The position numbers and the translations under genes are program-made. Below the pieces are notes generated by a model. The model searched no databases, was not told where the DNA came from, and was given only the letters and a program-made list of their open reading frames with translations. Below are positions 12,055-57,830 of a DNA stretch of 64,000 nucleotides, piece by piece. This DNA is from Vezdaea acicularis (lineage: Eukaryota), in the NCBI GenBank assembly GCA_026025075.1, contig JAPEUI010000005.1, forward strand, positions 186,001 to 250,000, given 5' to 3'. How positions within the stretch are numbered: the stretch's first letter is position 1; each line of letters opens with the position of its first letter.

Positions 12055-13778
12055 ATGTCGGACGGAACGGTGGTTGGCATCATGCCATTCCCGTATAATG
12101 GGACTACCGGCACTGGCTATACCGGCGGTGACTCCATCCAACAGGATCTTAACGTCTTCTACGATGTAAGAATCATTCGCAATGAAAACGAGCTTACGAA
12201 TGCGAGTAAGGACTAACGAAATGTGTATCTAGCGGGGTGATATTGCATGGATGATCACTGCGACCGCCCTCGTGCTTCTCCAGATCCCCGGTGTTGGGTA
12301 AGATTTTATATTGACGCTCCCTACTAGATACAGTGAGTCTAACACGACGATATAGCTTCCTCTATTCCGGTCTCGCTCGGAGAAAGTCGGCTCTCCAACT
12401 AATTTTCCTTTCGATGATGTCCGTCGGCGTCGTCACTTTCCAATGGTTCTTCTGGGGCTACTCCCTCGTCTTCTCTCACTCCGCTGGTCGGTTTATTGGA
12501 AACCTCGAAATGTTCGGTTTCATGAATAATCTTGCTCAACCATCCGTGGGCGGTTCTCGCGTTCCGGATCTTCTCTTTGCTCTCTACCAGGGCATGTTTG
12601 CCTGTATCACGTGAGTAATTGAAATTTCAACCACGAATTACTGGATTATGTATTGATTATATTTCTACAGTGTCGCCCTTGCAGTCGGCGCCGTCGCGGA
12701 TCGCGGCCGCATCGCCCCCTGCCTCGTCTTCATGTTCGTATGGACAACCCTCATCTACGACCCCATCGCCTGCTGGACCTGGAACCCTAGCGGGTGGGTC
12801 AACAAGCTCGGCGGTCTCGATTTTGCCGGTGGCACGCCCGTCCATATCTCCTCCGGCATGGCTGCTCTTTCTTACTCCCTCTTCCTCGGCAAGCGCCGCG
12901 GCTTCGGCACCGCCGAGGTGCAATATCGACCGCACAACGTTATTCACGTCATCACAGGCACGACCTTCCTCTGGGTAGGCTGGTTCGGGTTCAACGCTGG
13001 ATCCGCTGGATCCGCATCCCTACGCGCCGTCTCCGCTGGTGTTGTCACCAACCTCGCTGCCGCCTGCGGTGGCCTCACCTGGGTCGCCCTAGACTACCGC
13101 CTTGAGCGCAAGTTCTCCGCCGTCGGCTTCTGCTCAGGCGTCGTCGCTGGCCTCGTCGGCATCACCCCCGCCTCTGGATACGTCCCCCCCTGGTCCGCAG
13201 TCATCTTCGGCGTCGTCCCCGCCATCACCTGCAACTTCGGCACCAAGATCAAGTACTGGCTCAAGATCGACGACGCGCTTGACATCTTCGCCCTGCACGC
13301 CATCGGCGGCATCACGGGCAACATCCTCACGGCTTTCTTCGCCGCGGACTACATTGCGCATCTCGATGGGACCTCCGTCATCAACGGCGGCTGGCTCAAC
13401 CACCACTGGATCCAGCTCGCGTACCAGCTGAACGACTGCGTCTCTGGCGCGGCATACTCCTTCGTTGGCACCAGCATCATCCTCTACATCATCAACTGGA
13501 TCCCTGGCTTGCACCTACGTGCCGACGAGGGCTCCGAGATCATCGGCATGGATGATGCCGAGTTGGGCGAGTTTGCTGTGAGTTTTTCCTGATGAAGTCA
13601 ACCAACCCTGTATATTATACTAATTCAGACGCAGTATGACTTTGTAGAAATCACACGCGACATGTCCTCTCCCTCCACCATCCAGGGTGAACCGGCCAAG
13701 CCACTAAAGGGGCATGATCAGCTCCCTGGCGCGCGCGAGACTGTCACTGAGAAGATGATTCGGGATGATTCGTCTTAG
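12055..13778 (+). CDS. MEP2: Ammonium transporter (Amt/Mep family), twin-His Mep2/MepA-type
   Basis: Exons ~12055-12165, 12233-12297, 12356-12610, 12671-13577 and 13635-13778 give 494 codons. Motifs LYSGLARRKSAL, FQWFFWGYSL, DFAGGTPVH, LWVGWFGFNAGS, GLVGITP, DDALDIFALH and GMDDAELGEFAYD. The subtype is inferred from the first pore His. Confidence 0.9.
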
Positions 13779-14211: not shown

Positions 14212-16157
14212 TCATGACATACGTGGACCCTCGAGAAACAGGCGTAATTCCTCTTGAAGTGAGACGATGACGTCTCGGGAGACGGCCCTCATGAAGTCGC
14301 CGTCGTGAAGGCTCGTGGTGGGTGGAAGCGGGTCGAAGAAGCATCTGATGCAGTGCTGGACCGCTTTCCTGTAGAGGTAGGGCAGCTCGCCAGCGGCGTC
14401 GTTTTCCCACTGCTGCGCCGTCCACAGGATAGTGCTGGCCTTCTCGGCAGCCTCGTCGCTGGTGTTCATCTCGGAGATGACGTTTTCGATTGGGGTGTCG
14501 AGCCAGAGCTCGAGAAGGATAATGCCGAGGGAGAGGAGGCTGGGGTTCCCGTGAGGGATGCGGTTGGCTTGTTGTGTGTTGCAGGATGGAAGAGAGGTTG
14601 CGTTGGGTCCGGCGAAGTCGTAGGAGACGTAGGGCTGCTCGAAGTCAACGCGCTTCTTCGAAGAGGTGCTGTTTGCCCGGAAGAACCAGATATCCTTCTT
14701 GCTCCATGCCTCGTTCAGCCACGGCGTTGCGTGTAGTTGGAGAAGGGACGAGGCGAGGTTGACAGCGATTGTTAGTCTTTCTAATTGTGACAGCCGTCCA
14801 GGGTCGTATCGAGCTGTAGTAGGATTAGAGAGCAATTCTTCTAATGTGATCATCTCCTTGGCATCGGACACCCTGTCTTTCTTGATAGGGTAGACGCCTC
14901 GTAGCTTGCCTTTTCGGTCGAGGCAGAAGCCAAGAGGTGTGGCCTCGGATCTATATTCTCTAATAGCAGTGCAGAGGTCAGTGACCTCCGGTAAGGAGGT
15001 GTGATCATGAATCTCGTCCTGCTGGGATAGCGAGGGCGCTGGGAAGTCAGGGAACCGGACGCGGGGGATCTCCGGAGCAGATACACTTAGTAGGCCGGTA
15101 AATCAGTATAAGTAGAATGCGATGTTTGGGCCAACAGCGCACATACCTTCGGGTAGCAACCGCTAATGCTGGTTTCATCATTTTATCAGCTTCTTCGATG
15201 ACTCGTATCTCCGTCTCTTGCCACTTTCCAGTGATGATCTGATTCTCCGCCACCTCAATTTCGATAGAGAAGAAGACACTGAAGCTTGTCCTTCGTAAAG
15301 CATCCTCATTGAGGTTTTTCATGGCTGATCTCTCCGATTTCGAAGGCAAGATCCTCTTTTCGAGTTGCAGCTTTGCATTATGTGCTGCTTGGCAGCTACA
15401 ATTCCACCGTACTGAGAGCGCATTGTGAAGATCACTTGCATACTCCCGGATTTGATAAAGTGGGACTGGAAATGGTGACTTCCAAAAGCTTCTGTATGGC
15501 GCTAATTTTTCGCTCTTATCCCCAAATCTTTCCAGCGTTTTGTTATGCTTGTTCAACTCCACCGTCAAACGATACATGCCTCTCTTTGACATTCCAAACT
15601 TCACCCTCTTCTTGAATTCGAATTTGTTGCCGACACATGGATTTGCTTTCAAAAAGGCGTTGAGGTCGCCTCTGTTTGGAATGTCTTCCTGCATCAAGGG
15701 CAAGGGCTCAAATCAGCTTGAACGTTTCGGAAATTGGGTAATTGATTAGCATTAAATTTTTCCATACGTTCTTTTCCTGCTCTACATCAAGTACATTTGA
15801 GATTTTCTCCATCAGTTTCTCGATATCAAGAATTGTATCGTAGTACGCCTCATATGCCTCTCCAAGCCTTTCTTTGAGCCTTTCACCCAGATCGGCATCC
15901 TTCCACATAAACCCACTTGGGTCGGCCAACATTTGCGCAATCTCATCGCGAGAGGCGATAGGTGCCAAAAGCGCCTTTAGATTTTGTTCATAGTGTACGT
16001 GTTGCGTCCTCAATGCTCTGATGAGAAATGGAAGTTGATTTTTCCATTGCACAAAGGCAACGATGGGTTGCATTCCTTCCTGATAATGCTCGAGAGCCGC
16101 GACAAAGAGCGGCAACACCGCAAGCACCAAACCAGCAGTCTCGACTCCTGTGATCAT
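14212..16157 (-). CDS. ~601-aa protein with a HeLo/SesA-like N-terminal helical domain and a C-terminal degenerate kinase-like domain (DUF7580-type, from memory)
   Basis: Exons 16157-15768, 15688-15147 and 15085-14212 give 602 codons with GTATGG and GTATGT donors. N-terminus MITGVETAGLVLAVLPLFVAALEHY. C-terminal region RLTIAVNLASSLLQLHATPWLNEAWSKKDIWFF...PYV...LLSLGIILLELWL...YRKAVQHCIRC. Confidence 0.8.
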
Positions 16158-16394
16158 GATTGCGGTGAGGTTCAGGTTGATCGAGAAAACTGAATGTGGT
16201 ATCTCAGCCTTCTCCGCAAGTCCACCAATCGGATGTTAGCAATATACAGCAACCCATACAGCTATACGCACGGAGATAGTGGGTGACCTCCAGGTTCAGC
16301 GCTTCAGTTGAATCAAGTCATTATCTACTCCATTAACATACAATATTCTAGCGAGCTGTATCTATGCAGATCCCAAGATACAAAGTCGAACGTT
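16158..16394. promoter_or_regulatory. Short (237 bp) divergent intergenic region, probable bidirectional promoter
   Basis: Lies between the minus-strand ATG at 16157 and the plus-strand ATG at 16395. Confidence 0.5.
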
Positions 16395-19300
16395 ATGTAT
16401 GCGGGAAGTAAGTTGGAGTCCACTGCAAGTTTTGCAACACGAGATTGCATAGAAGCTTTCTCCCAGCTCCATGGAAAGCTCGTCACGTCAGGATGTCCTT
16501 TAAACGTGCAGATACCGTTAGATGGATTAGAGGACGAGATAGGGAGATTTAGGGTCTGGGCAGGTAATATGGGAGCGCTCCAGCAGGGTCACAGCTCACT
16601 TGACTATCGGTTACGAGACGCAGATCTTCTTCACGAAAACATTCTCAAGCTTCTGAAAGAACTGAAAGGGACAATTAGCGAAGGTCTGCATGAGTTCTTC
16701 TCTACGAAATCATTGTTAATGGAATGTAGCACTCTCCGTCATCTCTGGAGAGAGACTTCCGTACGAGGAAGAAGCGAAAGAGGATAAGTCCTTCGGTGCA
16801 GCAGAGGGTAGATTGCTATCATCGGCAGGCAGTCTCAGTGAAAGTGACGATGACGAAGAGAGCGATGGAATCCCGGTAACGGAGTTGTGGCAGCGCTTTT
16901 TAGAGGTTGGAGATATCGTGGATAATCTATACAAGCTCTCCATTACCATTCGCAATCCCTCATCACGTTCCAGATTCTCCAAGGCAGCTTCCTATCGGCC
17001 CAAGGTAGCCATCGATGACGCGCCAGATGCGCCAAAGGTTGACCTGATTTCTCAATACGAGCAACATGACATTAAACATGTCCGAGAAATTTTTCAAGAT
17101 CTTCGCGGAGAGTCGCCAAATGAAATACGATACGCGGATGACCCTTTGATATCTCGTTTTGGAAAAGCAATCTCGCAGCGTCGGCAACAATTCATGTACT
17201 GGAGGAGACATCGAGAGAAGCTCGCTGCCGAAGGGGCGGGTACAGAATGGTCCGTCACAAAACCAATACAACCCCTCGAATTCGGAACTTCTCCAGGTTT
17301 TGATTCCGAAGAGCCTAAAATAGGGATGAAGATACCAAATACCTCAGAAATCCGTCAAAGTGGGTTTACAAAATCAGTTCTAAGCAAGACGACCGCAACA
17401 TTTTTCGTACAGAAAGAAGACATGTCCAAAGACGATCAGTCAATAGGGTCCTCAGCATCTACGGCCTTCGCTCTAGATGGGAGCAAAGTTGAGCTACCGG
17501 CACCCCCAAAAAATCTACTGCATGAGAAAGACTTTGAGTGTCCATACTGCTTCGCCATTTGTCCGGCCAGATATGGCCAAAATCGTGCTTGGAGGTACGT
17601 TTCATTACATATTGGTGGGGTTACAAGACTTTCACACTTCATCCAACGAAATTTGCTACATTTGAATTACTAGCACTGCAGTGACCCCCGAGTACGTAGA
17701 ATTGTATATCGAGCCTGCAATTGACAATTTATCATTATAGAGCCCACCTCCATCGCGATCTCCGGCCCTATCTTTGCACCTATCCGAACTGTCCAACGGC
17801 CGATCAGCTCTACGACAGCCGTCGGGAATGGCTCAGCCATGAACGTTGGAGTCATAGGAAGAAATGGCGCTGTCCCAACCATCCTCACGAGGAATACCCG
17901 CGCGTCTCGGACTATGAGTCCCATATGAGGCAAGCGCACGAAGGCACATTTACCGAGCTCCAACTACCTGCTTTGATCACGATGGGTGAGACTACGTCCG
18001 CCCATTCTGAAAGACCGTGCCCCGTGTGTTTGAAAAAAGGTGTGACGGAGGAAGCTCTTCCGGCACATCTGGCGAACCATCTCGAGAGAATCGCGGCCTT
18101 TGCGCTCCCAAGACATATCGAAACCAATGATGGTGACTCTGTCCGGAGTAACGTAGCAAAAGCAGAAAGCAAATCTCTGAGTAGCAAATCCCAACTTTCT
18201 CTTTCCCCTGAAGCTACTAGAGCGATCAGCGACTCCAGCCCTTCATCCAGTTCGTCTGGATCGTCTGGCTCTTCAATTCGACGCGAGCACATTCACGGAG
18301 ATTTCGATCAAATACCTGATTCGGATGAGCAGCTATGGGATATCCTTCCAGACCGCCAAGAAGTCATGAAAGACAGCTGGCAAACCCCCAGTCTAGGAGA
18401 TCACATCCTTCGATCTTTTCAGCACCCTTCAACTCCGATGCAATCGACGGCAGATTTGGAAAAAGAGCTTGACCGGCTGCTTTCTTGGTTCCCTGACAGA
18501 GTAGTGACCGAGAGCGAATGTGAACAAGTTACCACGCTCTTAGCACAGAGTGAAAGTATGCATACATGGAGCGAATCACCCCGACATTTCATCATTTTCC
18601 GGTTCCTAAACCAATTAGAAAATATGGATAAATTAGTCGACACCGGATGCTCAGACTTATTACTCCCATATCCTTCCGCTTACCCATTCCCCAAAATCTC
18701 CAGAAATCCGGAGATAGATGAAGATTTTCTGAATCTTCAGTCCAAAGTTCTCTCCGGCTCGTCCAATCTTAACATAGGCCAGTCCTTTCGACATGCTCAA
18801 TTCGAATCATCTCAAGATCTACCTTTTCGCATCACGCGAGATCTTGGCAGACGTGGCAGACGCATTTTCACTAAATTGGACATAATAGAATCCAGATCGG
18901 ACACTCTCCTCTACTTTCTCAAGCGCTACCGTCGAGCCGACAAAAAATTATATTCTTCAAACAGCCCATATCACCTTTTCAAAAATGAGTTGGAGATTCT
19001 CAAACGCACTTCTTATAAACACATTGTTCAACTTATGGGTAGTTTTACTGAACCCAACTTTTTTGGGCTTATTCTAAAGCCAGTGGCGCCGACAAACCTT
19101 CGCGGATTCATGGAGACTAATGAAGGAGCAGCTGACACGTCGAGGGATACAACCCTTGCTAGCTTTTTTGGATGCCTTGCTAGTGCGTTATTATATCTAC
19201 ATATCAACGACATAACCCACCAGGTAATAGTAAATACCAATAAACCTGAGTATGAATTAACCTTTCAAATAGCACATCGATTCCACGAATATCTTAGTCC

Positions 19301-22300
19301 ACAATTCAAGTCCTTTGATTTGTGGGTTTTCCACAGCCAAGGATTGGCGAGGAGAAAGCCAGGGCGCGTTTGACGGGAATCTTAGTCCCAATACCCGCCA
19401 TCATGCTAATCTAGTACTTAAGGACTCCTTTCCGAGGGCAACTTTGGATGATGTATGGTCTCTTGGATCCGTCTTCCTTGAAATATTCACTGCGCTGCGG
19501 GGAATTTCGATAGCGAATCTGCGAAATTTTCAGCAGACTCACGGAACCTCTACCTTTGCTGATCGCGCCAAGGCAGCCAACCTATGGATTGAGTCTCTTT
19601 TGCAAGACGATAAGATTCACAACGAAATTCTTGATTGCATTCAGAACATGGTGCGGATAGAACCACGTCACCGCTACTCGACTTTGACTGTTGTGAACCG
19701 TATCAGAGAATATAGTACCCGTAATGCATTGGCCCTTTCGTTCTGTGGCGCCTGCTGCATGCCAGAAGGGAGCTTACCTAAGGCCAATACTGCTATCAAC
19801 GATATGGAGAACCTAGGATTAACATATGGGACAGAAGGTCGGTTTGAGGAGGCGAGGAAGCTTCAGACACAAGTCGTAGAGATGAGGCAGAGAGTACTAG
19901 GGGAAGATCATCCTGATACGCTGGCCAGCATGGAACGCCTAGCAATAACATACAGGGCAGAAGGTCGATTCAAGGAGGCGGAGGAGCTTCAGACAAAAAT
20001 CTTCACGGCAAGAACAAGACTACTGGAAGCGGGGCATCCTGATACGCTGTCCGGCATGGAAAACCTAGCAATATTATATAGGACAGAAGGTCGGTTTGAG
20101 GAGGCGAGGAAGCTTCAGACACAAGTCTTAGAGACGAAAAAGAGAGTACTAGGGGAGGATCATCCTGATATGCTGTCCAGCATGGATAACTTGGCGGTGA
20201 CATGTAGGATCAAAGGTCAAGTAAAAGAGGCGGAGGAGCTTCAGATGCAAGTATTCAGGATAAGAATGAGAGTACTGGGAGAAGAACATCCTGAGACCCT
20301 GGCCAGCATGGAAAATCTAGCAGTAACATATGGGGCAGAAGGTCAAATGAAGGAGGCGGAAGAACTTCAGACAAAAGTCTTCGAGATAAGAAGAAAACAT
20401 TTAGGGGAGAAGCATCCTGAGACGCTGATCAGTATGGAGAATCTAGCAATAACATATAGGTCAGAAGGCCGATTAAAGGAGGCGGAGAAGATTCAGATAA
20501 AAGTCTTAGAGATAAGTAAGGAAATGCTAGGAGAGAAGCATTTTGATACACTAAGACATATGGAACACCTGGCAATTACATATGGGTCAAGAGGTCGACT
20601 TGTAATGGCGGAGGAGCTCCAGGTACAAGTCTTACAGACAACTAGGGAACTACTAGGAGAGAAGCATCCTGACACGCTGAGACGTATGGAAAACCTAGCA
20701 ACAACATATGGGTTTCGAGGTTGGGACTCTTTGTCGGAAGAACTTCACGCAAAAGTCTTAGAGACGAGGAAAGAAATACTAGGAGAGATGCATCCAGATA
20801 CACTGGCAAGCATGGAGCATTTGGGGTTAACGTATGCTGTAGAGGGTAGGTTAAATGAGGCGGAAAAACTTCAGATACAAGTCTTAGAGACAAGGAAGGA
20901 AATATTAGGAGAGAAGCACCATGATACTCTGAGAAGCATAGGGCGTCTGGCGTCGACGTATCTTGCAGAGGGCAGATTAAATGAGGCGGAAAAACTTCAG
21001 ATACAAGTCTTAGAGACAAGGAAGGAAATACTAGGAGAGAAGCATCATGATACTCTGAGTAGCATAGGGCGTCTGGCGTCGACGTATCTTGCACAGGGCA
21101 GATTAAATGAGGCGGAAAAACTTCAGATACAAGTCTTAGAGACAAGGAAGGAAATATTAGGAGAGAAGCACCATGATACTCTGAGAAGCATAGGGCGTCT
21201 GGCGTCAACATATCTTGCAGAGGGCAGATTAAATGAGGCGGAAAAACTTCAGATACAAGTCTTAGAGACGAGGCAGAGAGTAGTAGGGGATGATCATCCT
21301 GATACGCTGAGAAGCATGGAGGACCTGTCAGTGACATATAGGGGTGAAGGCCGATTCAAGGAGGCAGAGGAGCTTCAGATACAAGTCCTAAAGACAAGGA
21401 AGGAAACACTAGGAGAGAAGCATCCTGATACGCTAGCCAGCATGGAGAACTTGGCAGTAACATATAGCGTTGAACACCGATCCATGGAGGCGAAGGGGCT
21501 TCATATACAAGTCTTAGAGACAAAAAAGGAAACACTAGGAGAGAAGCATCCTGATACGCTGAGAAGCATGGAGAACCTGGCAGCAACATATAGAATTGAA
21601 AATCGATTAGAGGAGGCGGAGGAGCTTCAGATACAAGTCTTAGAGACAAGGAAGGAAACATTAGGAGAGAAGCATCCTGATACGCTGAGTAGCATGGAGA
21701 AACTGGCAGAAATATATATGTTTGAAGGTCGATATGAGAAAGCAGAGGAGCTTCAGATACAAGTCTTAGAGACAAGTAAGGAAATACTAGGGGAGAAGCG
21801 TCCTGATACGCTGAGAAGTGTGGAAAATCTGGCAATAACATACAGGTATAAAGGTCGATTTGAGGAAGCAGAGGGGCTTCAGATACAAGTCTTAGAGACA
21901 AGGAAGGAGATACTAGGAGAGATGCATCTTGATACGCTAAGAAGCATGGAACATCTAGCTTCAACATATCGGGCAGAGGGTAAGTTAAAGAAGACGGAGG
22001 TTCTTCAGATACAAGTCTTAGAGACAAGAAAGGGAACACTTGGAGAGAAGCATCCTGATACGCTGGTCTGCATGGAGAACCTGGCAGTAACATATAGGTC
22101 TGAGGGTCGATTTGAGGAAGCCGAGGAGCTTCGGATACAAGTCTTAGAGACAAGGAAGGAAATATTAGGAGAGGCGCATCCTGATACTTTACTCTCTATG
22201 TACAACCTTGCAAGCCTGTACGGTTCTATTCATGGACGGCAGGAAGGTATACAGTTGGCTAAGCAAGCATTGGACGGTCAGACGATAGTTTTAGGCAAAG

Positions 22301-22371
22301 ACCACCCCAACACAATCTCGTCGGCGAAACTCCTCGAACAATTACAACTACCAAAAGCCGATCAGGAATAA
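16395..22371 (+). CDS. ~1911-aa multidomain protein: N-terminal helical domain, C2H2-type zinc fingers, protein pseudokinase and ~20 kinesin-light-chain-type TPR repeats
   Basis: Exons 16395-16683, 16730-17594, 17741-19223 and 19273-22371 total 5736 nt, in frame with no internal stops. Motifs GRFRVWAGNMGA..SSLDYRLRD; FECPYCF..WRAHLHRDLRPYLCTYPNC..WLSHERWSH; CPVC..HLANHLERIA. Kinase motifs FLKR, NELEIL, HIVQLMGSF, CLASALLYLH and DVWSLGSVFLEI. Repeated LGEKHPDTL units. Confidence 0.85.
19790..22340 (+). repeat. Coding tandem array of 126-nt (42-aa) TPR repeats, ~20 units plus a capping helix
   Basis: Consensus HPDTLxSMENLAxTYxxEGRxxEAEELQIQVLETRKEILGEK. The DNA motif cttcagatacaagtcttagagac recurs at 126-nt spacing. 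Confidence 0.95.
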
Positions 22372-22679
22372 CGGAAGTATCGAGGAGCAGAGCAGTATAT
22401 TGTTTCATCTCTAGAACACATCCATGGTTCATCACGAAATCTACAAACTTATCCAGCCATGCCTCCTGCACAGCCTTGCGCGATTAAGCTCGTCCACGAG
22501 CCACACAGTGCCCCCCTGAGACTTCCTTCTTCACTTGAAACCTAGGACTACGTGCCCCTAAATAAGGCGGACCAACGGGCCGAGACTTGTTTTGGGCTAA
22601 CGTCTCATTCGATAAAACATTTAGTTACTTCAGATAGTGACCATCTACATCGAGCATCTCATTAAGTTAGACAACCATC

Positions 22680-24054
22680 ATGCCTCTTCCGAAAGCGGAT
22701 ATAAGCTTCACACGGTTGCTCGCTCGCTGCCTTAGAAAGATAGCTTTGTTCATCGAGTCACCATATCGCGCTACAATCGAGACGCTGATCAAGATTCTTA
22801 CGTGGGTCGCCAACTATATCGAGAACCCGACGCCACCAAATCGATGGTTCATGAAAGGACTTTTCATAATTCAGATGGCAATGGCACTGAGCGTTCTAGT
22901 TCCTGCTGCAACCGCCATTCAATCGTATTGGCGCGGGCATAGGTCATATGATGTTTATTCGGGGTCATATGGTTCTTTCGTAAGGACCGAGCCTGGTATC
23001 AAGGCCTTAATGTAAGTTCTTTTGATATATAATGCAACTTGTTATCCATATAGCCTTTCTTAGCATCTTCTGTGTCTTCAAGCTATTCCGTGAAGTCAAT
23101 ATATATTCAGACATAGCTTCCTAATGAATCTATCCCTTTGCGGCGCCCTTGGCTGGGCGAGATTGTTCGATTGGAAAATCTCTGGATCATCTAGAGAACT
23201 TTCGTAGGCGGAAGATTTCTAGAGCGCTGTCACTGCTTTCTTTGTGCCAATTTTTGAAAGACATTTTGCGCCCTTCCATTATGATCTTGCTCGAAAACAT
23301 CTACTCACAGGAAGATCATCAGGGTGTCCCAGTTGATACTAGCTAGCATCACTTCTATCAACAGTGTTTTGCAAATAGTTTTCTATCCTGGAAATCCAAA
23401 TCGCGTCAAAATATGTGCTGGTATAGGTGTCCTGGGTTTCTTCGCTTGGGCTGTCATCGCTGGAGTCTCGTCGACTTGCAACGAGTACGGCTCTGAGTAC
23501 TCAGCTTGTGACTCTTTGTATGGCTCAGTTACCATATGCGATGCCATGTCCTGGTAAGGAGACCTGCGACCGGGGCGCTCGTTTAAATTTATGCTTATGA
23601 CAATTATCTGCACTTTAGCTTTCTGGCTTTTGTCGTTGCGGCCATCTTCATCCATTCACTTCGCCATCCGCATCGAAAACGTGAGTCCAGGACGGTCGAA
23701 AATGATCCATACAACAAAGCTCAGCTTCCTGGAACACCGAACATGCGATCTTCGTTGGACTCAGTACGACCGAGTAATAGTAGCGGAATAACTCGCACAC
23801 AATTCTTGCTGAACGGCCAGCTTTATGAATTGCATGCGGTGGTGGGGGTACCTGAAGCAGAATGCATCTCCCGAGTGGAGCTTGCTCAAGGAATTGCTGG
23901 CATAACAGAGTTGCCGTGTGAACAGGAGGATCGTGAGATACAAGTCAGCTCCAGGACAAGTGAACGGGAACAGGACGCTGCCCGCTCAGATGGAATGGAT
24001 GACTCAATGCGTGAAAATCAGGATGAAATCCATAGCTCTGGGGCGCGAAATTGA
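22680..24054 (+). CDS. Hypothetical small multi-exon membrane protein, possibly a degraded gene
   Basis: ORF 22680-23015 has a hydrophobic segment and a GTAAGT donor at ~23012. Further hydrophobic ORF pieces lie at 23324-23557, 23591-23791 and 23743-24054. I could not assemble a clean spliced frame. Confidence 0.3.
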
Positions 24055-25564
24055 ATCGAGGAGACTTCATGTCCGCTGTCTCAGTCTCACATTCTTGTAC
24101 CTTCGGGTGATTTGTGCCGATGGCGTCCTTTCCCAGAGAAGACGCCGGTGATTGGATATTTCCGATCCGGAGGCCCAGCGCTATCAAACATCACGATGCC
24201 GGTAAGGTCATGTGAGCACCGTGCCAGGTCAGTAGATGAGCTACGCATAGCGAAGCAGAAATCAAGGGGAAAAGCAGGATCCAATGACACGGCAGCTGAT
24301 GCGAGCTCCGTTGACTCCAGTCCGTTTGCAGAGTATCGCCATGGGAACGATACTTATGACGAAGCGGATGATCGTAAACGCAAACTTGAACCTCGGTACT
24401 ACATGCTATCGAAGGCTCATTTGAACGTCTCTTAGACAGGTCAAGGACCGGACGTGACGCTGTGGGGGATGGGCGCATTACAAGCGTAGTGGCCAAGGGT
24501 AGCTCGGCACTAATCCCAGTCTGTCCGTGCCACTGTTTAGTTTGCTGCTTAAGCGACTCGCCCTGCCTGTGCGGCACCAGGGTTGAAGCTTTTCAATCTT
24601 TGACCTCAATCGGCTTACCTGTTGGCCTAAACTTGACGAGCACTGCAAAATGAATTCTCTGGATGCTGAAGATGAGATCGGGAAAGGTGCTCAGGGGGCC
24701 CGATCGTCTACGAGAGTGTACGACCACTTCGCCTTACCGTGGAGCGAAAGATGAGGTACCTATCATTTATTCCCCATATTTCCTTGTTCATCTGGTTCCT
24801 CTCGCTCGTCCCGACGGGTCGAAATCGGTGCCGAGCCCCGTGCCATGCAGTAGCATCACTCGATGACACATTCCACACCATGTACCCACAAAGCTTGTTA
24901 TTTGCTTTAAGATTGCGGCATGGCGCGAACACCTGGTTTCTTCTCCGCACGAACATGTGTACCGATGGCATCCGGCAATTGAAGAATGCATGCAGCCTAA
25001 GACATTTATGGCCTGACAGATTGTTGTTTACTGCGAATCCAACGGGTGGTAGAGACCGTCACATAGTCCTCCTCAACCGTCATATCGCTTCTGCAAAGCC
25101 ACTGCCTCTGGAATCTTGGGATTCCCTCTTCTTTTTCATTGTCTATTGAGTTATGGCCGGCTGTTTTGGATGCCTCTCCGGCTTTGGAGGGCTCCAGCCT
25201 GCGCAAGCCTCGATCCGCTGGGCCTCCATAGCTTCCATAGAACAGACCCGTCCGCTCGGGTTGCCAATTTGAAGCCACAGTGGACTTGTTCGGTGAGCCA
25301 CCGCGCCGATCTACCCCAACGGTAGACCCATGCCCAGCTAGGCTGAGGCAATTCAAAATTTCACAGAACAATTTCGAGGCATTCCAGGCTTTACTCAGAC
25401 AGGACCTATAAAGCTCCAGCTCCCCAGCACTTTATGTCAACGAACATTTCCTTCGAGCCCTCTGGCCGTTGTTATTCTCTCCTCAAGTCGTTCTTTATCA
25501 GTATCAGTCTTTCGGCCACTGGCCACCACTCTCGTTAACTCTATTAATATTCATTGTCTCCGTA

Positions 25565-28168
25565 ATGGGTTTCTCAAAGATGGCCTTGATTGCCACTGCG
25601 GCCTTTGCAATGGCCTCGTCGGCTTTAGCATCTAATTCTGTGCTTCACCCTCGGGATGTTCCAATTTTGCCGCCCTGCTCGTATCCATTCACCGACTTTG
25701 TATACAGCGGCTGTTTCATAGATTCTCAACCCATTCTAGGTCTTACCTTTGATCCTCTGCTTAATGGCAACCTCGTAACGCCAGAGCTCTGCATTGCCGC
25801 GTGCAAAGCCAATGGCTATAAGTATGCTGGTGAGTGGAGTTGATCCCATGAGGCCTTGAAATTCTCTAATAATTTTCCAGGTCTTGAGTATTATTTCGAA
25901 TGTAAATGTGGTGAAACCATCGGAGGGGCACAAACTTCCCAGAGTGACTGTAATCTTCCTTGCGCGGGGAACTCAAGGTTTGAAATACCCAGAAGTTTCT
26001 TCAGTTAATCATACCTAACACCTCTCAGCGAGATTTGCGGGGGCTTTAATCGTTTATCTGTCTACCAAGATCCGACCTTCCCGGCGGTCAACAATACCAC
26101 AATCGTTTCAGACTACAAATACGTAGACTGCTATACCGAAGGTATCGGTGGCCGTACTCTATCTACACTCCTAAATCTCAACCCTTTAACAATTACCGTG
26201 GAGAGCTGCCTCCAAGCCTGTGGAAATGCTGGGTATCCTCTCGCCGGTGTTGAATTCGGCAGCCAATGCTTCTGTGGCGTCGTATTGGGCAACGGAACCT
26301 CGATTGCTCCACCAGGGAGCTGCAACATGCCTTGTAACGGTAACGCCAGCGAGACGTGTGGTGGGCCTTCTCTCCTGAATCTTTACGTATCAGCCGATTT
26401 CGAATCTACAATGCCTTGTGGGCCGTTTGTCCAGCCGCCTCCTTCTTCGACCACCACCGTTTCGGCTACTTCGGCTACTTCATCTACTTCGTCAACTTCT
26501 TCGACTTCCTCGGCTTCCTCAGCTTCTTCGACTTCTTCGACTTCTTCAACTTCCTCGGCAGCTTCGACCACTTCAAGTACTTCGTCTGCATCGTCCACTT
26601 CATCCATCTCGTCTACATCGTCCTCTTCATCTACGTCATCAAGCTCTTCGGATTCTTCGACTTCTTCCACTTCCTCGACTTCCTCGACAACGTCGACTAC
26701 TTCCTCTACTTCATCCACATCATCTGCGCCGTCCACGTCGTCTACTTCATCTACGTCGTCAACCTCTTCGGCTTCTTCGACCTCTTCGACTTCTTTGGAT
26801 TCCTCAACCTCCTCAACTTCCTCGACAACGTCGACTACTTCGTCTACCTCGTCTACATCCTCTACTTCATCCACCTCGTCCACTTCATCTCCTTCGTCGA
26901 CTTCTTCAACTTCCTCAACCACGTCGACAACTTCGTCTACGTCGTCTGCGCCATCTACTTCGTCTACTTCATCTACGTCGTCAACCTCTTCGGCTTCTTC
27001 GACTTCTTCGACCTCTTCGACCTCTTCGACTTCTTCGGATGCTTCAACTTCCTCAACTTTCTCGACAACGTCGACTACTTCGTCTACCTCGTCTACATCC
27101 TCTACTTCATCCACCTCGTCCACTTCATCTGCTTCGTCGACTTCTTCAGCTTCCTCGACCACGTCGACAACTTCATCTACGTCGTCAGCGCCATCCACTA
27201 CGTCAACTTCATCTACGTCGTCCACCTCTTCAACTTCTTCAGCTTCCTCGACCACCTCAACTACCTCAACAACCCCGATCACATCGACCTCCTCGACCTC
27301 CTCGACCTCCTCGACCTCCTCGACCTCCTCGACCTCCTCGACTAGCTCGACTAGCTCGACCAGCTCGACTACGTCGTCGACCTCTTCGACTTCCTCGACT
27401 ACTTCGTCCACTTCATCTTCTACTTCAACGACATCCACTTTGTCTACTTCTTCAAGCACATCCACTTCGTCTATTTCTTCAAGTACATCCACTTCTTCAA
27501 CTTCTTCAAGTACATCCACTTCATCTATCTCATCCTCATCCACGTCAAGTACCACAACTTCTTCCTCTTCAACTTCGACTTCGACTTCGACTTCGTTAAC
27601 TACAATGACCACTTCAAGCACTTTAGCGGCTTCAACCACTTCAAGCATCTCCACCTGCCCCACTCCCACCCCAACCGGGTGCCACTGCGTTGTACCGAGC
27701 CTATACACTGATGATAACACCATCGGCGGCATCACGCTTCCCTGCGTAGGATGTAACAACGAAAGGTCGGACTGGACCAGCAATCCCTATAAGCTATACA
27801 CCAACGGCGACACGAGGCAGTGCGGATCTTACGAGCGTCACAGACTCAATGATGCCTGCCTCGAAGCGTGCGTCTGGCAGTATAATCAATGCATCTTCAC
27901 GTACGCCAACAGCCGCAAAGGCAGAGGTGGCCGTGGTAGGGGCCATGGCGGCTTTGATACCTATCAGAGCGCAAGCAGGAAGTGTATTGACCAGTATTAT
28001 GCCTGTTACGCGGTCAATCAATACATTGAGGACTTCAGCACGTGCACGGAGCCGCCCAGCCAGCCAGGGCAGGAGGGAGATTGTACACCCGGTGGGCCAG
28101 CGCCTTTCGGCGAGAATAGGCAGCTCACTTCTCCTAATGAGGGCTGGTATGGGTGGGGCTGGCAGTAA
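25565..28168 (+). CDS. Secreted WSC-domain protein: signal peptide, two WSC domains, long Ser/Thr stalk and C-terminal Cys-rich domain
   Basis: Signal peptide MGFSKMALIATAAFAMASSALA. WSC motifs YSGCF..CIAACKANGYKYAGLEY..C.CG and YVDCY..CLQACGNAGYPLAGVEFGSQCFCG..CNMPCNGNASETCGG. Introns at ~25830-25880 and ~25978-26028. Confidence 0.88.
26450..27655 (+). repeat. Low-complexity Ser/Thr-coding repeat: 9-nt STS units nested in a ~240-nt higher-order duplication
   Basis: The 60-nt lines starting at 26821 and 27061 are identical (240-nt period). A pure (tcgacctcc)n run lies at ~27284-27340. Confidence 0.9.
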
Positions 28169-49635: not shown

Positions 49636-51720
49636 TTAAGTGCACTTCAGTCGACTTCTCCGAAGATCGCTTGTCTCCAGATCCTGTTTGTTCCCATAGT
49701 ACCTATTCGGCTCAACAGCAGTACCCCCTATCTCCGAGTCGTCGTGGTCAACGAAGGCCATTTCCAAATGATCGCTCACTGCCAATATGCGCACCCGTTG
49801 ACTAAACGTCTGTATCGTTGATATGCCGGCACATGTGTTACGCAAAGCCGAGGTCGGTGGCGAGTTCATAGCTAGTGCCGTGACCTCAGAGATCGTCTCC
49901 CAGCTATTCGAGCTCATGCGCGAGAAGCATATTATCCATATGCTGTGAGCGATGGCAAGGGCGCTGTAGGTAAGGAGAACAACTAATGAGGTGATTATAG
50001 CCGCTCCGTTTGTGCCATACGCGTAACCCCGGACAGTCACAGTCAGCTGTAACGGCATATATCCTTTTCGCAGCTCAGGATCGATTTCGTACGCATGTTG
50101 TCCGTACCCGAACACTTTGCCAGATGCTGGTAGGAACTGTTCTTCCCATACCAGTTCGGGTTTCAGGTCGCCTTGGATAGTCGAGTTATAGCCTACACGG
50201 CTAAGACCGTTTGTAATCATGAGCGCCAAAAGAGACTCGACGATCACAGGCGTAGCAACAGTGATGGGTTGGTTCGTCCCAATCCCTGCCTCGGCCGCGA
50301 GTGTGTTGAAGGTGGATTTATTCGTGGTCGGGTCGATGGGGTTGAGATATTGAGCCCAGTCTGGGCCGATAATCACCCTTTTGGAAGAATTGCCCCAGTC
50401 CAGAGTTGAATTATAGACATTCAAAGATGAGGCGACCATTCTTGGCCCAATTTCTGTACCTGAGGTTGTTGTGAGATTCATCCAGCGAGCATCCACGTTG
50501 CAAGCTATAAGATCTAATCCGCCGCGGCCAACGGGGATTGTTACCACGACACCAATCGAGGAGCTTTCGAACTGATCTCCAGGAAGTTCGATCCAGTTTA
50601 GAGCTAAGTCGGTCCTATTGAGTTCATTCTTTATCGACTCCTGAAGAGGATCACTGGTATACGGTACTAGGGTATCATCACCCCAAAGCGGAAAAGACGG
50701 CGTATCACGACCGTACGTAACATTACATTTGATTCGAGTAGCTGGCTGAATAGCTCCTATATTGTAGGTGGATGACTGTCGATATTGAAATCGGGTCTTG
50801 CCTAACTGGGTCACAGTCCAAGCAGCAACCGGCCAGAGCTCGCCACTTGCTGATATAGCATCTGCGATGACAGCTTGCGGCATTGTGGTCATAGTTGGCG
50901 AGATACTGTAGAGGTTTTGGTCGCTCGCACCGACTTGCAGCTCTAAAACACTGTCCTTTGCCGGTACACGGACGTATCTAGGTAACGCCCGCCACACACC
51001 CGGTTCAACTTCTAAGCCAGGCCAAAAAGTGGCATAGCCTTCGCCAAAAGCATCCCAGCCAGTGGATGGGCAAGCGTCGTTACTTCCGGCGGTTTGGCAC
51101 GCACCATCTAGTATATATGTCGAGTTCAGTTGTTGTGGCCACAGCTGGTCTATGGTAGTATTCAGCCATAGACTCGTACCGCCGGCCTTCCAATCATCCA
51201 GTTGCGGTTTCATAGCGGTGGCACTGGCCGGTCCAACGGTTACACCGAGGATAGCACACACAACAATCATCACCAGAAGAAACCATTTCTTCCGGAGGCT
51301 GTTGAAACGAGCGAGACATGTGCCAAGGAACTCCTTCGACCATAGCACGGATATATTGGTGATGGATAGGCCGATGGAAATCGATCCAAACGGAAGGCCA
51401 TGTCCAACGATCAGCTCTCTGCGCATGATGGAGAGTACTATTGCACTCAAAGATGCTAGCATGGTCAGTTCATGCAACTTCGCTGCGAACTGCAACAACA
51501 AAAACTTGACTGGATCTTGTCCTGTAGGTCCTGCAAGTTCTCCGCCGATGTATAGACCTCTTCCATTCAAGACCGCAAGAGAAAGAGACGCTAATACTGG
51601 TATGAGATGTATAAGCGTTGCAAGAGAAGCCGCTTGGATATCCTTCTGTACAGCAATCCTCTTTTTCTCTCGCGCGGGTCTACCTCGAATTTGAAGCCAG
51701 AGATTGTGAAGCGTTTGCAA
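49636..51720 (-). CDS. Uncharacterised fungal membrane protein (N-terminal TM bundle, large N-glycosylated extracytoplasmic domain, C-terminal TM); start unresolved
   Basis: The open frame is at least 694 codons. Motifs LQFAAKLHELTMLASLS, GLPFGS, VGPASATAMKP, C.VDARW, GYAYG and SWETISEVTALAMNSPP..L.NTCAGI. There is no in-frame ATG at the 5' end, so an upstream exon near 51.8-51.9 kb is likely. Confidence 0.75.
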   Translation of the reverse strand: MQTLHNLWLQIRGRPAREKKRIAVQKDIQAASLATLIHLIPVLASLSLAVLNGRGLYIGGELAGPTGQDPVKFLLLQFAAKLHELTMLASLSAIVLSIMRRELIVGHGLPFGSISIGLSITNISVLWSKEFLGTCLARFNSLRKKWFLLVMIVVCAILGVTVGPASATAMKPQLDDWKAGGTSLWLNTTIDQLWPQQLNSTYILDGACQTAGSNDACPSTGWDAFGEGYATFWPGLEVEPGVWRALPRYVRVPAKDSVLELQVGASDQNLYSISPTMTTMPQAVIADAISASGELWPVAAWTVTQLGKTRFQYRQSSTYNIGAIQPATRIKCNVTYGRDTPSFPLWGDDTLVPYTSDPLQESIKNELNRTDLALNWIELPGDQFESSSIGVVVTIPVGRGGLDLIACNVDARWMNLTTTSGTEIGPRMVASSLNVYNSTLDWGNSSKRVIIGPDWAQYLNPIDPTTNKSTFNTLAAEAGIGTNQPITVATPVIVESLLALMITNGLSRVGYNSTIQGDLKPELVWEEQFLPASGKVFGYGQHAYEIDPELRKGYMPLQLTVTVRGYAYGTNGAAIITSLVVLLTYSALAIAHSIWIICFSRMSSNSWETISEVTALAMNSPPTSALRNTCAGISTIQTFSQRVRILAVSDHLEMAFVDHDDSEIGGTAVEPNRYYGNKQDLETSDLRRSRLKCT

Positions 51721-53244
51721 GCCGACGGTTCGAAAAAAGCTCTCTGCTCTCGAGGAGTAAGAAGGAGCTATCCCGCTCCCTATTAGAGGAGTCTCATCTT
51801 CGCGATTATGGTCTCGAGGTCCTGGGCTGCGTTACGGCGGGCGTCAGCAAGTTTGGACAACCTACACTTCATAAAAGCGAAACGGATCTTCTCGGCGTGC
51901 GGATAGATGAGAGATAGGTTATATTCAGAAGAGAAGAAGAAGAATGACTGTACGTGGTTGGGAGTGTTTTGAGAGCCAGACCCTCCACCGGAGCCCCTTT
52001 TGGCCCATGCGACTTTGGAGAAGCAGATCCTCGAAAAGTCGTCATCTTTACGCGCGGATGGAACGCTTGGAACTGATCGAAAGTTGCTTTGCTGAGGCAA
52101 ATACTCTCTTTCCGCTCTGTAATGCTGACGGCTAAGGCTCAGCTATCAAGACCTCAATGCCATCCGAAGAGAAGCCGGCTTAAAGTACTACAGCCTCGTG
52201 AGAGCAGCGGCACAGACTGTTCGAACTCGCGGTACTTGCAGACCTTGCCAAACCACCGGGACGACAAGAGAAAGGTCCCTTGCCGCCAGTGATTATCGCA
52301 TTCATGCTGGCTCTGCAGGCATGGCATAGCAACGGGCACATCTTGCCCCGAGGCTCAGGTCTGGCGCCATCATGTCTCCTCAAGCCAGTCGATCTAGCCG
52401 CGGGGAACGGGATGAGCGGCAGACGGGTCAAGAAGGGGCTGGAAGGTTTCAAGGATGTCCCATATCGTAGCTGAACGCTGTTGCACAAGCCAGCCGCGCT
52501 TGTATGGTCATGCCGGGGGCCCATTGGACAAAGGTAACGGCGCGTAAAAAGAGGAGAGTAATCGGCAAAGGAGCGGAACGCGCAGGACTGAAGCTCGAAT
52601 TTCCTTCAGTCGCGGCGATTGGATGGGGTAACAGCGCGTATGCACGGCAAGACATCGGTAGGACAACGAATCGAGAGAAGCCTGGAGACCGAAATAAATT
52701 TCCTTCAAGTCAGCTGGAAAGCAGGTGTTAGGGGTCCAAGCACGACCAAGATTCATTTTCGAAGTGAGCCAAGCAATCAGAGGAGCTCACCAGTGCGGAC
52801 AAGAGATTCTCCTGATTCCAGTCAAGAGGAAAACCAGAATTCCATTTTAGAAATTAAATGGTATGAAAGCGCGCCTGGCTCGTGGTAATTCCAAAGAACG
52901 GAAAACACTAGTCCCGGGAAGCGGGAGCCGCCGAGGTCGCTAAGTTAGGCCTGCGCAAGTTCAGTGGCTCCTGCCGCGTTGGCCGCTTCGGAACCCGAAT
53001 AATATGTGCCCTAAAATGTTGGAATAACTATACTTCCTCTCCGACGGACTTGCGCCGATCAACATTTCCTCCATATATTTAGATATCTACACCATATGCT
53101 ATGCTATTACCCACTAGTATCCGATGAATTAGACTCCTACAATGTTTGCTGCGAATTGGCAGCCGCGAACTCTGAGGCGTCAATCTATACCAATCTATCG
53201 CAAAAAAATCTCGATATTGCTCACAACATAAGTCACTGCCTGAA

Positions 53245-56867: not shown

Positions 56868-57830
56868 TCATAGCTCTGGCTCGCTCAATATCCCCAGCTT
56901 AAGCTCTGGCCCTTCCCATACGAGACCCTCTGGCGCGCTGCAGCATGCCTCGCTGACATATGTTGTGTTGCAGGGGCAACCCATTAGCTCCCACTTGACT
57001 TCTTGCTCCTCTCTTTTGATCTTCCCCCCAAGAGAATTGATGACGGATCCTCCAGTACCAACCCCGCCAGCCAATAGGAGAAAAACACCCACTAAATTCG
57101 TGATATCTGACTTGAGGCAGATCCCCTTGTAGAAATGTTCCCCGGCACTAAAGGTCCTCACAGCTCTACACTCGCAACTGTTGCTAGAACAAGAGTTGTA
57201 GTTGCTGCAGGTGTCGCTGCATTGCTCGGCATTCTTATCTCTCTGGCGTTGTGACGTCGCTGTCGCTCTTCCACCTGCCGACCCTCCACTTGCTGACCCT
57301 CCACCTGCTGATCCTCCACTCGCTGACCCTCCACCTGCCGACGAGCTCCCCACATCTAAGCTCGACATAACATTGGCCAAACCATCCGCAGACCCAGTTG
57401 AGCTCAAAGCTTGATTGTCCCCCATGGAGTCGAATTGGGGACCCAGTGGAGGTGGAGGGATCTTCTTGACGAGAATCTCGCACTTGCAGGCCTCCTTGCA
57501 ACGGGATATGAAAGTTGGAGTTCGGAGTTCGTCGGTGCCGTACGGGGTATTGCACATAGGGTAGCCTTTACCCAGACAGATACAGCCTACGGTCGGGTAA
57601 TATGAGTTCAAGCCACAGAATTGTCTCATGCCACCGACGCCTTCAGGCCAGTCATTGAAGGAGTAACCCGCAGGCAAGTCACGGGGGCTGAACATCTGTT
57701 CCAGGGAGGCCCGGCAGACGAGTTCAACTGCCCCGCGAGGTTCTAAGGTTTTGCCAACAGGTTCCTGACCTGGTAAAGCAGCCGTGGGGCATAGAAAGGG
57801 GAGGAGAAGAGAAAACAGAAGGAAAGCCAT
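56868..57830 (-). CDS. Secreted Cys-rich protein with two Cys-rich modules, a Gly/Ser linker and a C-terminal CPCN-x-TYVS-xx-CC motif
   Basis: Single 320-aa ORF with signal peptide MAFLLFSLLLPFLCPTAA and an (SAGGG/SASGG)n linker. It ends GCPCNTTYVSEACCSAPEGLVWEGPELKLG. Confidence 0.8.
   Translation of the reverse strand: MAFLLFSLLLPFLCPTAALPGQEPVGKTLEPRGAVELVCRASLEQMFSPRDLPAGYSFNDWPEGVGGMRQFCGLNSYYPTVGCICLGKGYPMCNTPYGTDELRTPTFISRCKEACKCEILVKKIPPPPLGPQFDSMGDNQALSSTGSADGLANVMSSLDVGSSSAGGGSASGGSAGGGSASGGSAGGRATATSQRQRDKNAEQCSDTCSNYNSCSSNSCECRAVRTFSAGEHFYKGICLKSDITNLVGVFLLLAGGVGTGGSVINSLGGKIKREEQEVKWELMGCPCNTTYVSEACCSAPEGLVWEGPELKLGILSEPEL

Follow-up and report, generated by a model that had tools for sequence, protein, structure and literature searches.

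Head-to-head genes for a DUF7580 kinase-like protein and a zinc-finger protein with exchangeable C-termini: a conserved ascomycete pair and its possible MLKL-like role

We describe a pair of divergent genes, here called A and B, in a 64,000-nucleotide stretch of Vezdaea acicularis (contig JAPEUI010000005.1, positions 186,001 to 250,000; hereafter the window, whose own numbering is used for all positions). Gene A encodes a protein with an N-terminal helical bundle and a kinase-like DUF7580 domain, and gene B encodes a large protein whose first ~500 residues form a helical and zinc-finger region, the N-module, that is conserved across 36 database relatives. The pairing of a DUF7580 gene with an N-module gene is real, old and widespread in ascomycetes, and the partner proteins are predicted to bind each other directly. 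We give about an even chance to the reading that the two genes form a conserved ascomycete module in which an MLKL-like protein A is combined with an adaptor B of lineage-variable input, that is, a sensor/adaptor-executioner pair.

Conservation of the gene pair

The open frames and a scripted check of splicing resolve two intact spliced genes whose starts face each other across a short spacer, as the original prediction from this DNA had it, and Pfam agrees with its placement of the pair between an ammonium permease and a WSC gene. All five introns of the pair start with GT and end with AG, and the exon junctions of both genes are in register with those of aligned homologues. Gene A runs on the minus strand from an ATG at 16157 to a stop at 14212-14214 and has introns of 79 nt (GTATGG..CAG) and 61 nt (GTATGT..AAG), while those of gene B measure 46, 146 and 49 nt. 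The gene models are as follows.

14212..16157, minus strand: gene A (left gene), a DUF7580 protein of 601 aa, from reading frames, GT..AG introns, homologue alignment and Pfam
16157-15768, 15688-15147 and 15085-14212, minus strand: exons of gene A, summing to 1806 nt (601 aa plus stop)
16158..16394, no strand: ATG-to-ATG spacer of 237 bp, presumed to be a shared divergent promoter
16395..22371, plus strand: gene B (right gene), 1911 aa, from reading frames, scripted check and homologue-registered junctions
16395-16683, 16730-17594, 17741-19223 and 19273-22371, plus strand: exons of gene B, summing to 5736 nt (1911 aa plus stop)

Metagenome contigs of the Joint Genome Institute (JGI) were scanned with a DUF7580 pattern derived from a six-sequence alignment, which yielded 23 loci totalling 168.7 kb. 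The N-module was found directly upstream and on the opposite strand in all nine loci in which the DUF7580 gene is preceded by at least 1.5 kb of sequence (L002, L003, L004, L006, L007, L011, L013, L019 and L020); the remaining 14 of the 23 end too near the DUF7580 gene to show a neighbour, and the borderline locus L022 had no N-module match in its 534 nt upstream. The upstream match takes in exons 1 and 2 of the N-module together with the part of exon 3 that encodes the fingers, and no N-module match occurred elsewhere in the 168.7 kb of fetched loci. These nine loci collapse to seven distinct pairs, whose proteins are ~28-60% identical to each other, and the head-to-head spacers in four related loci measure 185-421 bp.

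The reverse direction, from N-module gene to DUF7580 neighbour, was covered for 14 named proteins that we take to be from Dothideomycetes. For each of the 14, the same organism has a DUF7580 protein on an equally long contig, and these contigs include small ones of 27,943, 28,685 and 95,055 bp. Four of the 14 pairs carry consecutive tags (ACEQ8H_000415/416, N0V89_005590/591, K469DRAFT_691837/838 and BDW02DRAFT_585440/441). Nine further named N-module proteins, from Geoglossum (P0042), Penicillium roqueforti (P0043) and Orbiliaceae (seven, P0044-P0050), have no partner among the 120 of 317 matches listed, which is evidence neither way. The adjacent and divergent arrangement of DUF7580 and N-module genes, which the original prediction had proposed as a check across ascomycete genomes, was recovered wherever the sequences allowed the comparison.

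The two halves of the pair also appear to have been inherited together. Identity matrices of the kinase-like part of the left protein and the exon-2 part of the right protein were correlated with r 0.92, or 0.75 without the near-duplicate L004 (Mantel p 6e-4). In agreement with the expected congruence, the maximum-likelihood trees of both parts share all three supported clades, namely (L011, L019), (L003, L004, L006) and (L007, L013); the window pair and L002 are unplaced in both trees. Relatedness of the source organisms could yield part of this co-inheritance signal.

What follows the zinc fingers differs between the loci, as listed here.

L003, L004 and L006: Macro domains behind the fingers, the Macro version being a double one, and in L006 also an EVH1-like domain and RPA_C
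L007: ankyrin repeats behind the fingers
L011: RhoGEF-PH-CNH behind the fingers, with the RhoGEF in the fingers' own open reading frame (ORF)
L013: NACHT_N-NACHT-ankyrin, in one ORF of 1438 aa together with the N-module and the fingers
L019: NB-ARC-DUF7779-TPR_10 behind the finger ORFs on the same strand, a one-gene fusion being probable

Database relatives add SH3, PHD and ankyrin C-termini. These C-termini differ even within clades, and since sister pairs carry different ones, the conserved unit consists of the DUF7580 gene and the N-module, the rest of gene B being exchangeable. A swap of C-termini among TPR, ankyrin and other domains is therefore borne out, while the WD repeats that had also been anticipated were not seen. 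With NACHT-ankyrin in the sister pair L013 and probably NB-ARC-TPR in L019, the family includes true NOD-like receptors (NLRs; NOD, nucleotide-binding oligomerization domain), so that the description of the system as NOD-less holds for the window member and not for the family. In the L011 gene (4409-7720 of that locus, minus strand) the RhoGEF-PH-CNH region has the layout of Rom1/2-type Rho exchange factors, and the gene still lies head-to-head with a DUF7580 gene, its sister L019 probably having the NB-ARC-TPR form. The Macro-type pair is seemingly present once per genome (P0200-P0271 with P0015-P0040).

The two proteins and their predicted interface

The domains of the two window proteins are placed as follows.

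15455..16157, minus strand: N-terminal helical bundle of protein A, aa 1 to ~208, with a hydrophobic first helix; contains intron 1 (15689-15767)
14245..15454, minus strand: DUF7580 domain of protein A, a kinase-like fold without catalytic motifs, from Pfam and the orthologue model; contains intron 2 (15086-15146)
16395..17532, plus strand: helical part of the N-module, aa 1-364, with RFRVWAGN (aa 51), SLDYRL (aa 68), the LYKLS helix (aa 163) and the RRQQFMYWRRHR helix
17533..18090, plus strand: four C2H2-like zinc fingers, aa 365 to ~500, finger 1 being split by intron 2
18834..19700, plus strand: pseudokinase domain of protein B, with intron 3 (19224-19272) inside the catalytic loop, from Pfam and kinase alignments
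19804..22323, plus strand: TPR_10 array of 20 units of 42 aa (126 nt), Pfam E 5.9e-213

The C-terminal part of protein A is a member of DUF7580 (PF24476), since its exon-3 piece scores 111 bits (E 1.2e-31) against a curated cut-off of 27 bits; this piece covers profile positions 67-316 of 319 and the exon-2 piece positions 6-72. The fold of the left protein was read from an orthologue of Glonium stellatum, P0004, whose identity to the three exon pieces is 53, 42 and 35%. For residues 209-574 of the P0004 model, protein kinases were the sole class of match, with BRAF as the top Foldseek match (E 2.6e-3, probability 1.00). VIA-align gave Z 9.5 with a root-mean-square deviation (rmsd) of 5.3 over 194 aligned residues, and Z was at least 8 for 266 of 1000 aligned chains, these chains having been taken from Foldseek's kinase-dominated list. 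No HRD/DFG-type set was present among the invariant or near-invariant columns of 82-94 full-length DUF7580 relatives, and for this reason we call the DUF7580 domain a pseudokinase; on the orthologue model, the C-terminal domain of protein A is a catalytically dead kinase-like domain. The protein stops right after it and has no prion-forming tail. The ~601-aa left protein with a hydrophobic N-terminal helix and a degenerate kinase-like domain that had been described from the sequence is thus recovered by Pfam and by the fold model.

With 3,521 representative clusters matching its N-terminal domain at E ≤ 0.001, DUF7580 is a large family. A few of its members show weak RhoGEF matches (4/150, best E 7.1e-6, and 4/82, best E 0.016), and a RhoGEF fusion within the left family was considered and rejected, as the 11 longer members that were checked contain DUF7580 alone. 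Weak HEPN_Cthe2314 matches occur in the helical region of 20 of 82 members.

The N-terminal bundle domain (~210 residues), folded separately with 150 relatives by AlphaFold2 (AF2), is modelled as long helices with a predicted local distance difference test score (pLDDT) of 86.4 and a predicted template modelling score (pTM) of 0.78. In the hydrophobic first helix, G3, E5, A7, G8, L11 and P15 are each at least 90% conserved in these relatives. When the fold was searched against 48,161 Protein Data Bank (PDB) representatives, the top 32 included plant NLR coiled-coil (CC) domains, the MLKL four-helix bundle (4HB), AtMLKL3 and HET-S. Specifically, the bundle matched the Sw-5b N-terminal domain (Z 10.1), Rx CC (Z 9.4, rmsd 2.5, 106/107 residues), MLA13 CC (Z 7.8), MLKL 4HB (4btf_A; Z 7.6, rmsd 2.5, 99 residues aligned), AtMLKL3 (Z 6.7) and HET-S (2wvo_A; Z 6.3). 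Features from the ESM language model point in the same direction, with HeLo clusters making up 7 of 30 Atlas matches (score 0.94), and HeLo (PF14479) is the commonest secondary Pfam family in the relatives, always below threshold, at 27/82 (best E 0.0025) and, in a second set of relatives, 6/150 (best E 0.0019).

Sequence searches of the same region gave no link to MLKL. Neither the N-terminus profile nor the whole-family profile found an MLKL chain at E ≤ 10 among all PDB sequences, and no MLKL-type Pfam family is listed for the window proteins or the left-family relatives. The PDB profile search with the left N-terminus returned only noise, such as alphaRep and ApoE at E ≥ 0.015, and Pfam found nothing consistent on the N-termini of nine left-family members. 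With bundle positions 36-184 as profile, the best PDB sequence matches were to the apolipoprotein E four-helix lipid-binding domain, at a non-significant E of 0.07-1.3. Given this mixed evidence, we call the left protein MLKL-like in architecture only, with its bundle, connecting helices and pseudokinase; that the bundle is homologous to HeLo or to MLKL 4HB is suggested, not established. Of the HeLo-like label that protein A had been given, a bundle with sub-threshold HeLo signals remains, in the form of weak and non-specific evidence with no match above cut-off.

Within the N-module of protein B, the RFRVWAGN and SLDYRL helices are followed by an acidic linker, the LYKLS..IR helix, the RRQQFxYWRRHR helix and the four C2H2-like fingers. 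Its helical part corresponds to no Pfam family, solved relative or named Atlas cluster, and against the PDB the N-module matched only SH3 domains, contributed by two SH3-bearing members. The Cys/His ligands of the fingers are at least 90% conserved in the 36 sequences. PF26082 (acuF-like C2H2) is precomputed on 34 of the 36 relatives, and local Pfam had no match on the exon pieces of the window, in which finger 1 is split by an intron. Further downstream, Pkinase (PF00069) matches two exon pieces (E 3e-6 and 3.8e-3); the score of 27.3 bits lies below the cut-off of 31.7 because intron 3 splits the domain. The N-lobe aligns to ASK1 (E 5e-5), and alignments to ASK1 and CDKL5 show that catalytic residues are absent, HRD being replaced by HQH across intron 3 and DFG by GFS, while the beta3 Lys is retained. 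At the DNA level the TPR units share 58-96% identity with each other, units 9-12 being at 80-96%, and they vary most at positions 6, 9, 10, 14, 15, 31 and 41. The right protein thus has the parts first described for it, including a dead kinase and, in the array, 20 TPR_10 units.

The right protein has the C-terminal array of similar repeats by which fungal NLRs (signal transduction ATPases with numerous domains, STAND) are recognised in part, and it lacks their central P-loop NOD: Pfam found no NACHT or NB-ARC on any exon piece, and a Walker A motif is present in neither protein. On the minus strand, two long ORFs (237 and 279 aa) lie antisense to the TPR array at 20642-22195 and are most likely a by-product of the periodic composition of the repeat, not genes.

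The complex of the partners was predicted from full-length P0004 and residues 1-420 of P0015, Glonium proteins that share the 27,943-bp contig and are 76-90% and 65-86% identical, respectively, to the head-to-head pair of L003/L004. This orthologous pair scored 0.71 (0.67, 0.71 and 0.71 in three runs), and all three controls scored 0.00, an outcome in favour of the pairwise contact that the original prediction had suggested modelling. Among solved complexes, 51 of 78 reach the 0.71 mark, as do 2 of 108 mismatched pairs; for eukaryotes, it is reached by 39 of 65 solved pairs that have no similar complex, against 2 of 126 for unrelated pairs. At least 72% of the contacts were common to the three runs, with a partner pLDDT of at least 63. 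Recall of a known structure is unlikely, since PDB sequence searches found no solved complex resembling either family.

The predicted interface falls on the most conserved stretches of both families. On the A side (P0004 numbering) it involves bundle helix 30-57 and residues 395-397, 523-528 and 568-574 of the kinase-like domain; near-invariant P30 and F34 of the helix are in contact, and K32, L41 and L48 lie within its span, not among the named contacts. On the B side (P0015 numbering) it involves residues 36-51 (RFRVW), 70-82 (the helix after SLDYRLRD), 101-105 and 129-157 (the LYKLS helix), with near-invariant D143, Y149, S152 and R156 among the contacts. A homotypic relation, in which the two N-termini would be related to each other, was considered and rejected at an hhalign profile-profile probability of 0.4%.

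A possible mechanism, its rivals and known systems

In the mechanism that we propose, the adaptor helices of B would hold helix 2 of A's bundle and touch the C-lobe of A's kinase-like domain. The exchangeable C-terminus of B would then sense a cue, which in the window could be a ligand on the TPR array, perhaps together with the dead kinase. Clustering of B in the NLR versions, or a ligand-driven conformational change in the version found here, may alter the state of A, whereupon A's bundle with its hydrophobic first helix would act, most likely on a membrane in the manner of MLKL and HET-S. We infer the binding itself, the sensing by the TPR array and the way in which B controls A (be it activation or restraint), and likewise the attack on membranes and the cell death. 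The Macro-type partners might sense ADP-ribose-derived signals, an idea known from bacterial defence systems. More tentatively, and with doubt prevailing over confidence, DUF7580 proteins at large may be the ascomycete counterpart of MLKL, attacking membranes under the control of helical/zinc-finger adaptor binding and not of phosphorylation, amyloid or cleavage. If so, the adaptor has been plugged onto NLRs, Macro domains, ankyrin/TPR arrays and RhoGEF, which would constitute a third, undescribed wiring of fungal regulated cell death, with the window carrying a NOD-less kinase-TPR version of it.

Several observations weigh against the sensor/adaptor-executioner reading. Among the matches listed, dozens of Dothideomycete genera carry the Macro-type pair, at 45-77% identity to P0004, and this broad presence suggests stable inheritance. 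The Macro-type pair therefore looks stably inherited and orthologous, unlike fast-turnover immune/NLR loci, a feature of the kind that the original prediction had named among those speaking against itself. Unrelated bundles match the N-terminal fold equally well or better (IncA Z 11.8, HIP1R Z 10.0, Cbl Z 9.4); the Z values of the bundle lie within the range that the tool flags as a common arrangement for helical proteins, and Foldseek gave the bundle model no match at E ≤ 1e-3. The HeLo PF14479 cut-off of 23.2 bits is reached by no relative, exon 1 of the window gene has no match to it, and the N-terminus profile retrieved no HeLo or MLKL chain from the PDB sequences. As to the complex, the same test was also passed by 7 of 44 blind neighbour pairs, and it was modelled on orthologues 35-53% (A) and 41-51% (B) identical to the window proteins. 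Finally, the proposed mechanism assigns no role to the four zinc fingers.

The main rival draws on several of these points. It holds that the two proteins form a conserved heteromeric signalling or regulatory complex without any cell death, B being a zinc-finger scaffold or reader and A a pseudokinase scaffold whose bundle is merely protein-binding. The broad and apparently vertical conservation of the Macro-type pair across Dothideomycete genera would suit such a complex, as would the generic fold of the bundle, its use as a binding surface in the predicted interface, the ordinary genes that neighbour the pair in the window, and B C-termini (Macro, EVH1-like, RPA_C winged helix, SH3, PHD and RhoGEF-PH-CNH) that are typical of signalling and chromatin proteins. 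We nevertheless consider it rather unlikely, because the N-module precedes NACHT-ankyrin and probably NB-ARC-TPR, a position in which fungal NLRs keep their effector or signalling domains according to passages of PMC12258605. The strong conservation of A's hydrophobic first helix also argues against it, as do HeLo being the leading, if weak, signal in both Pfam and the Atlas, and the near-identical TPR_10 units, which the original prediction took to be typical of fungal NLR-type sensors.

The predicted interface bears on two further explanations, both of which we regard as improbable. If the genes were merely co-regulated from a shared bidirectional promoter, for instance as two steps of a pathway whose products do not bind each other, the short spacers here and in the four related loci would be accounted for, as head-to-head pairs often share promoters; such a relation leaves unexplained, however, why the complex prediction passed with controls at 0.00 and an interface on the most conserved motifs of both proteins, and why the pair persists at ~30% identity while the rest of B is swapped. 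Alternatively, B could be a C2H2 transcription factor that controls A, the adjacency being that of a regulator and its target. Fungal regulators often adjoin their targets, and B has four conserved C2H2-like fingers. Yet these are acuF-like (PF26082), a type without shown DNA binding; the B proteins, which contain NLR, Macro or repeat regions, measure 1,000-2,000 aa; and the predicted protein-protein interface needs no DNA.

The sensor/adaptor-executioner reading can be compared with systems in which the outcome is known. MLKL acts through its bundle on the membrane, and adjacent two-gene clusters with a HET-S-type mechanism bring about cell death in fungi, as described in parts of PMC12881547 and, for the latter, also of PMC10197012. 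Gene A resembles MLKL and plant MLKLs in the order of its parts (bundle, connecting helices, dead kinase-like domain), and as in MLKL/RIPK3 a separate protein is predicted to bind its product. Unlike MLKL, however, gene A has no detectable MLKL sequence homology; the conserved region of its partner is a helical/zinc-finger module and not an active kinase, there is no RHIM, and B is predicted to contact mainly A's bundle, not the activation loop. Control by phosphorylation is unlikely because most partners have no kinase and that of the window partner is dead.

HET-S/NWD2 and HELLP/PNT1 are likewise adjacent pairs with one helical-bundle protein that has a hydrophobic N-terminus, the other gene being, in some members of our family, an NLR with ankyrin or TPR. 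In contrast to the amyloid pairs, the partners described here have no motif in common (hhalign, 0.4%), A has no prion-forming tail, and the coupling is predicted to run through a folded helical interface; moreover, gene A carries a pseudokinase, which HET-S and HELLP do not. The HET-Q1/HET-Q2 and RCD-1 clusters, as parts of PMC10197012 present them, similarly join a conserved acting domain to a variable ankyrin, TPR or NLR part, with the gene for the executioner adjacent. They differ in that, by Pfam, neither gene of our pair has a gasdermin or protease domain, so that activation by cleavage is not indicated. The absence of a protease and of a shared amyloid motif had both been stated in the original prediction and are upheld. 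With respect to fungal NLRs, the near-identical TPR_10 units of the window B resemble those of NB-ARC-TPR NLRs, and N-module relatives are fused to NACHT-ankyrin and probably to NB-ARC-TPR; the window B itself differs by having no NOD or Walker A, the dead kinase occupying that position.

Full-text searches of the literature available to us found no paper that names DUF7580, acuF-like fingers or six locus tags of family members, and a search for fungal MLKL returned only the preprint of a survey of NLR N-termini. MLKL homologues in fungi are mentioned in a passage of PMC11476962 that cites a Basidiobolus protein. The main text of PMC9815663 has no occurrence of zinc or C2H2, its supplementary tables and those of PMC12258605 being places where the N-module class could be listed; in the fungal NLR paper the main text has no 'DUF', and no DUF7580 partner is named in the 12 of 21 relevant passages that were covered.

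The pair matters beyond the window in several respects. The known wirings of fungal cell death are few, namely NLR to HeLo/HELL through amyloid, protease to gasdermin, and HET/TIR, and to our knowledge most N-terminal domains of fungal NLRs and most DUF families are unexplained. Here a large DUF family gains a fold-level reading and is linked, through conserved synteny, shared inheritance and a predicted contact surface, to another unnamed module that accepts NLR and non-NLR sensors. This yields a testable hypothesis of an MLKL-like pathway in Ascomycota and a handle on what the zinc-finger N-termini of fungal NLRs may do.

Surroundings of the pair

No paralogue of either gene occurs elsewhere within the window. 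The right gene and the WSC gene are separated by 3.6 kb (22400-26000) that contain only short ORFs, such as 22671-23015 and 23587-24054, with no Pfam family except a sub-threshold IQ motif. Two ORFs of 731 and 324 aa, at 49636-51831 and 56868-57842 on the minus strand, have no Pfam family at E ≤ 0.001. By Pfam, the ammonium transporter on the left flank lies at 12657-13592 and the WSC gene on the right at 26009-28168, and the remaining genes of the window are ordinary ones, among them those for SLAC1, glycosyltransferases, Sey1 and a Kelch protein.

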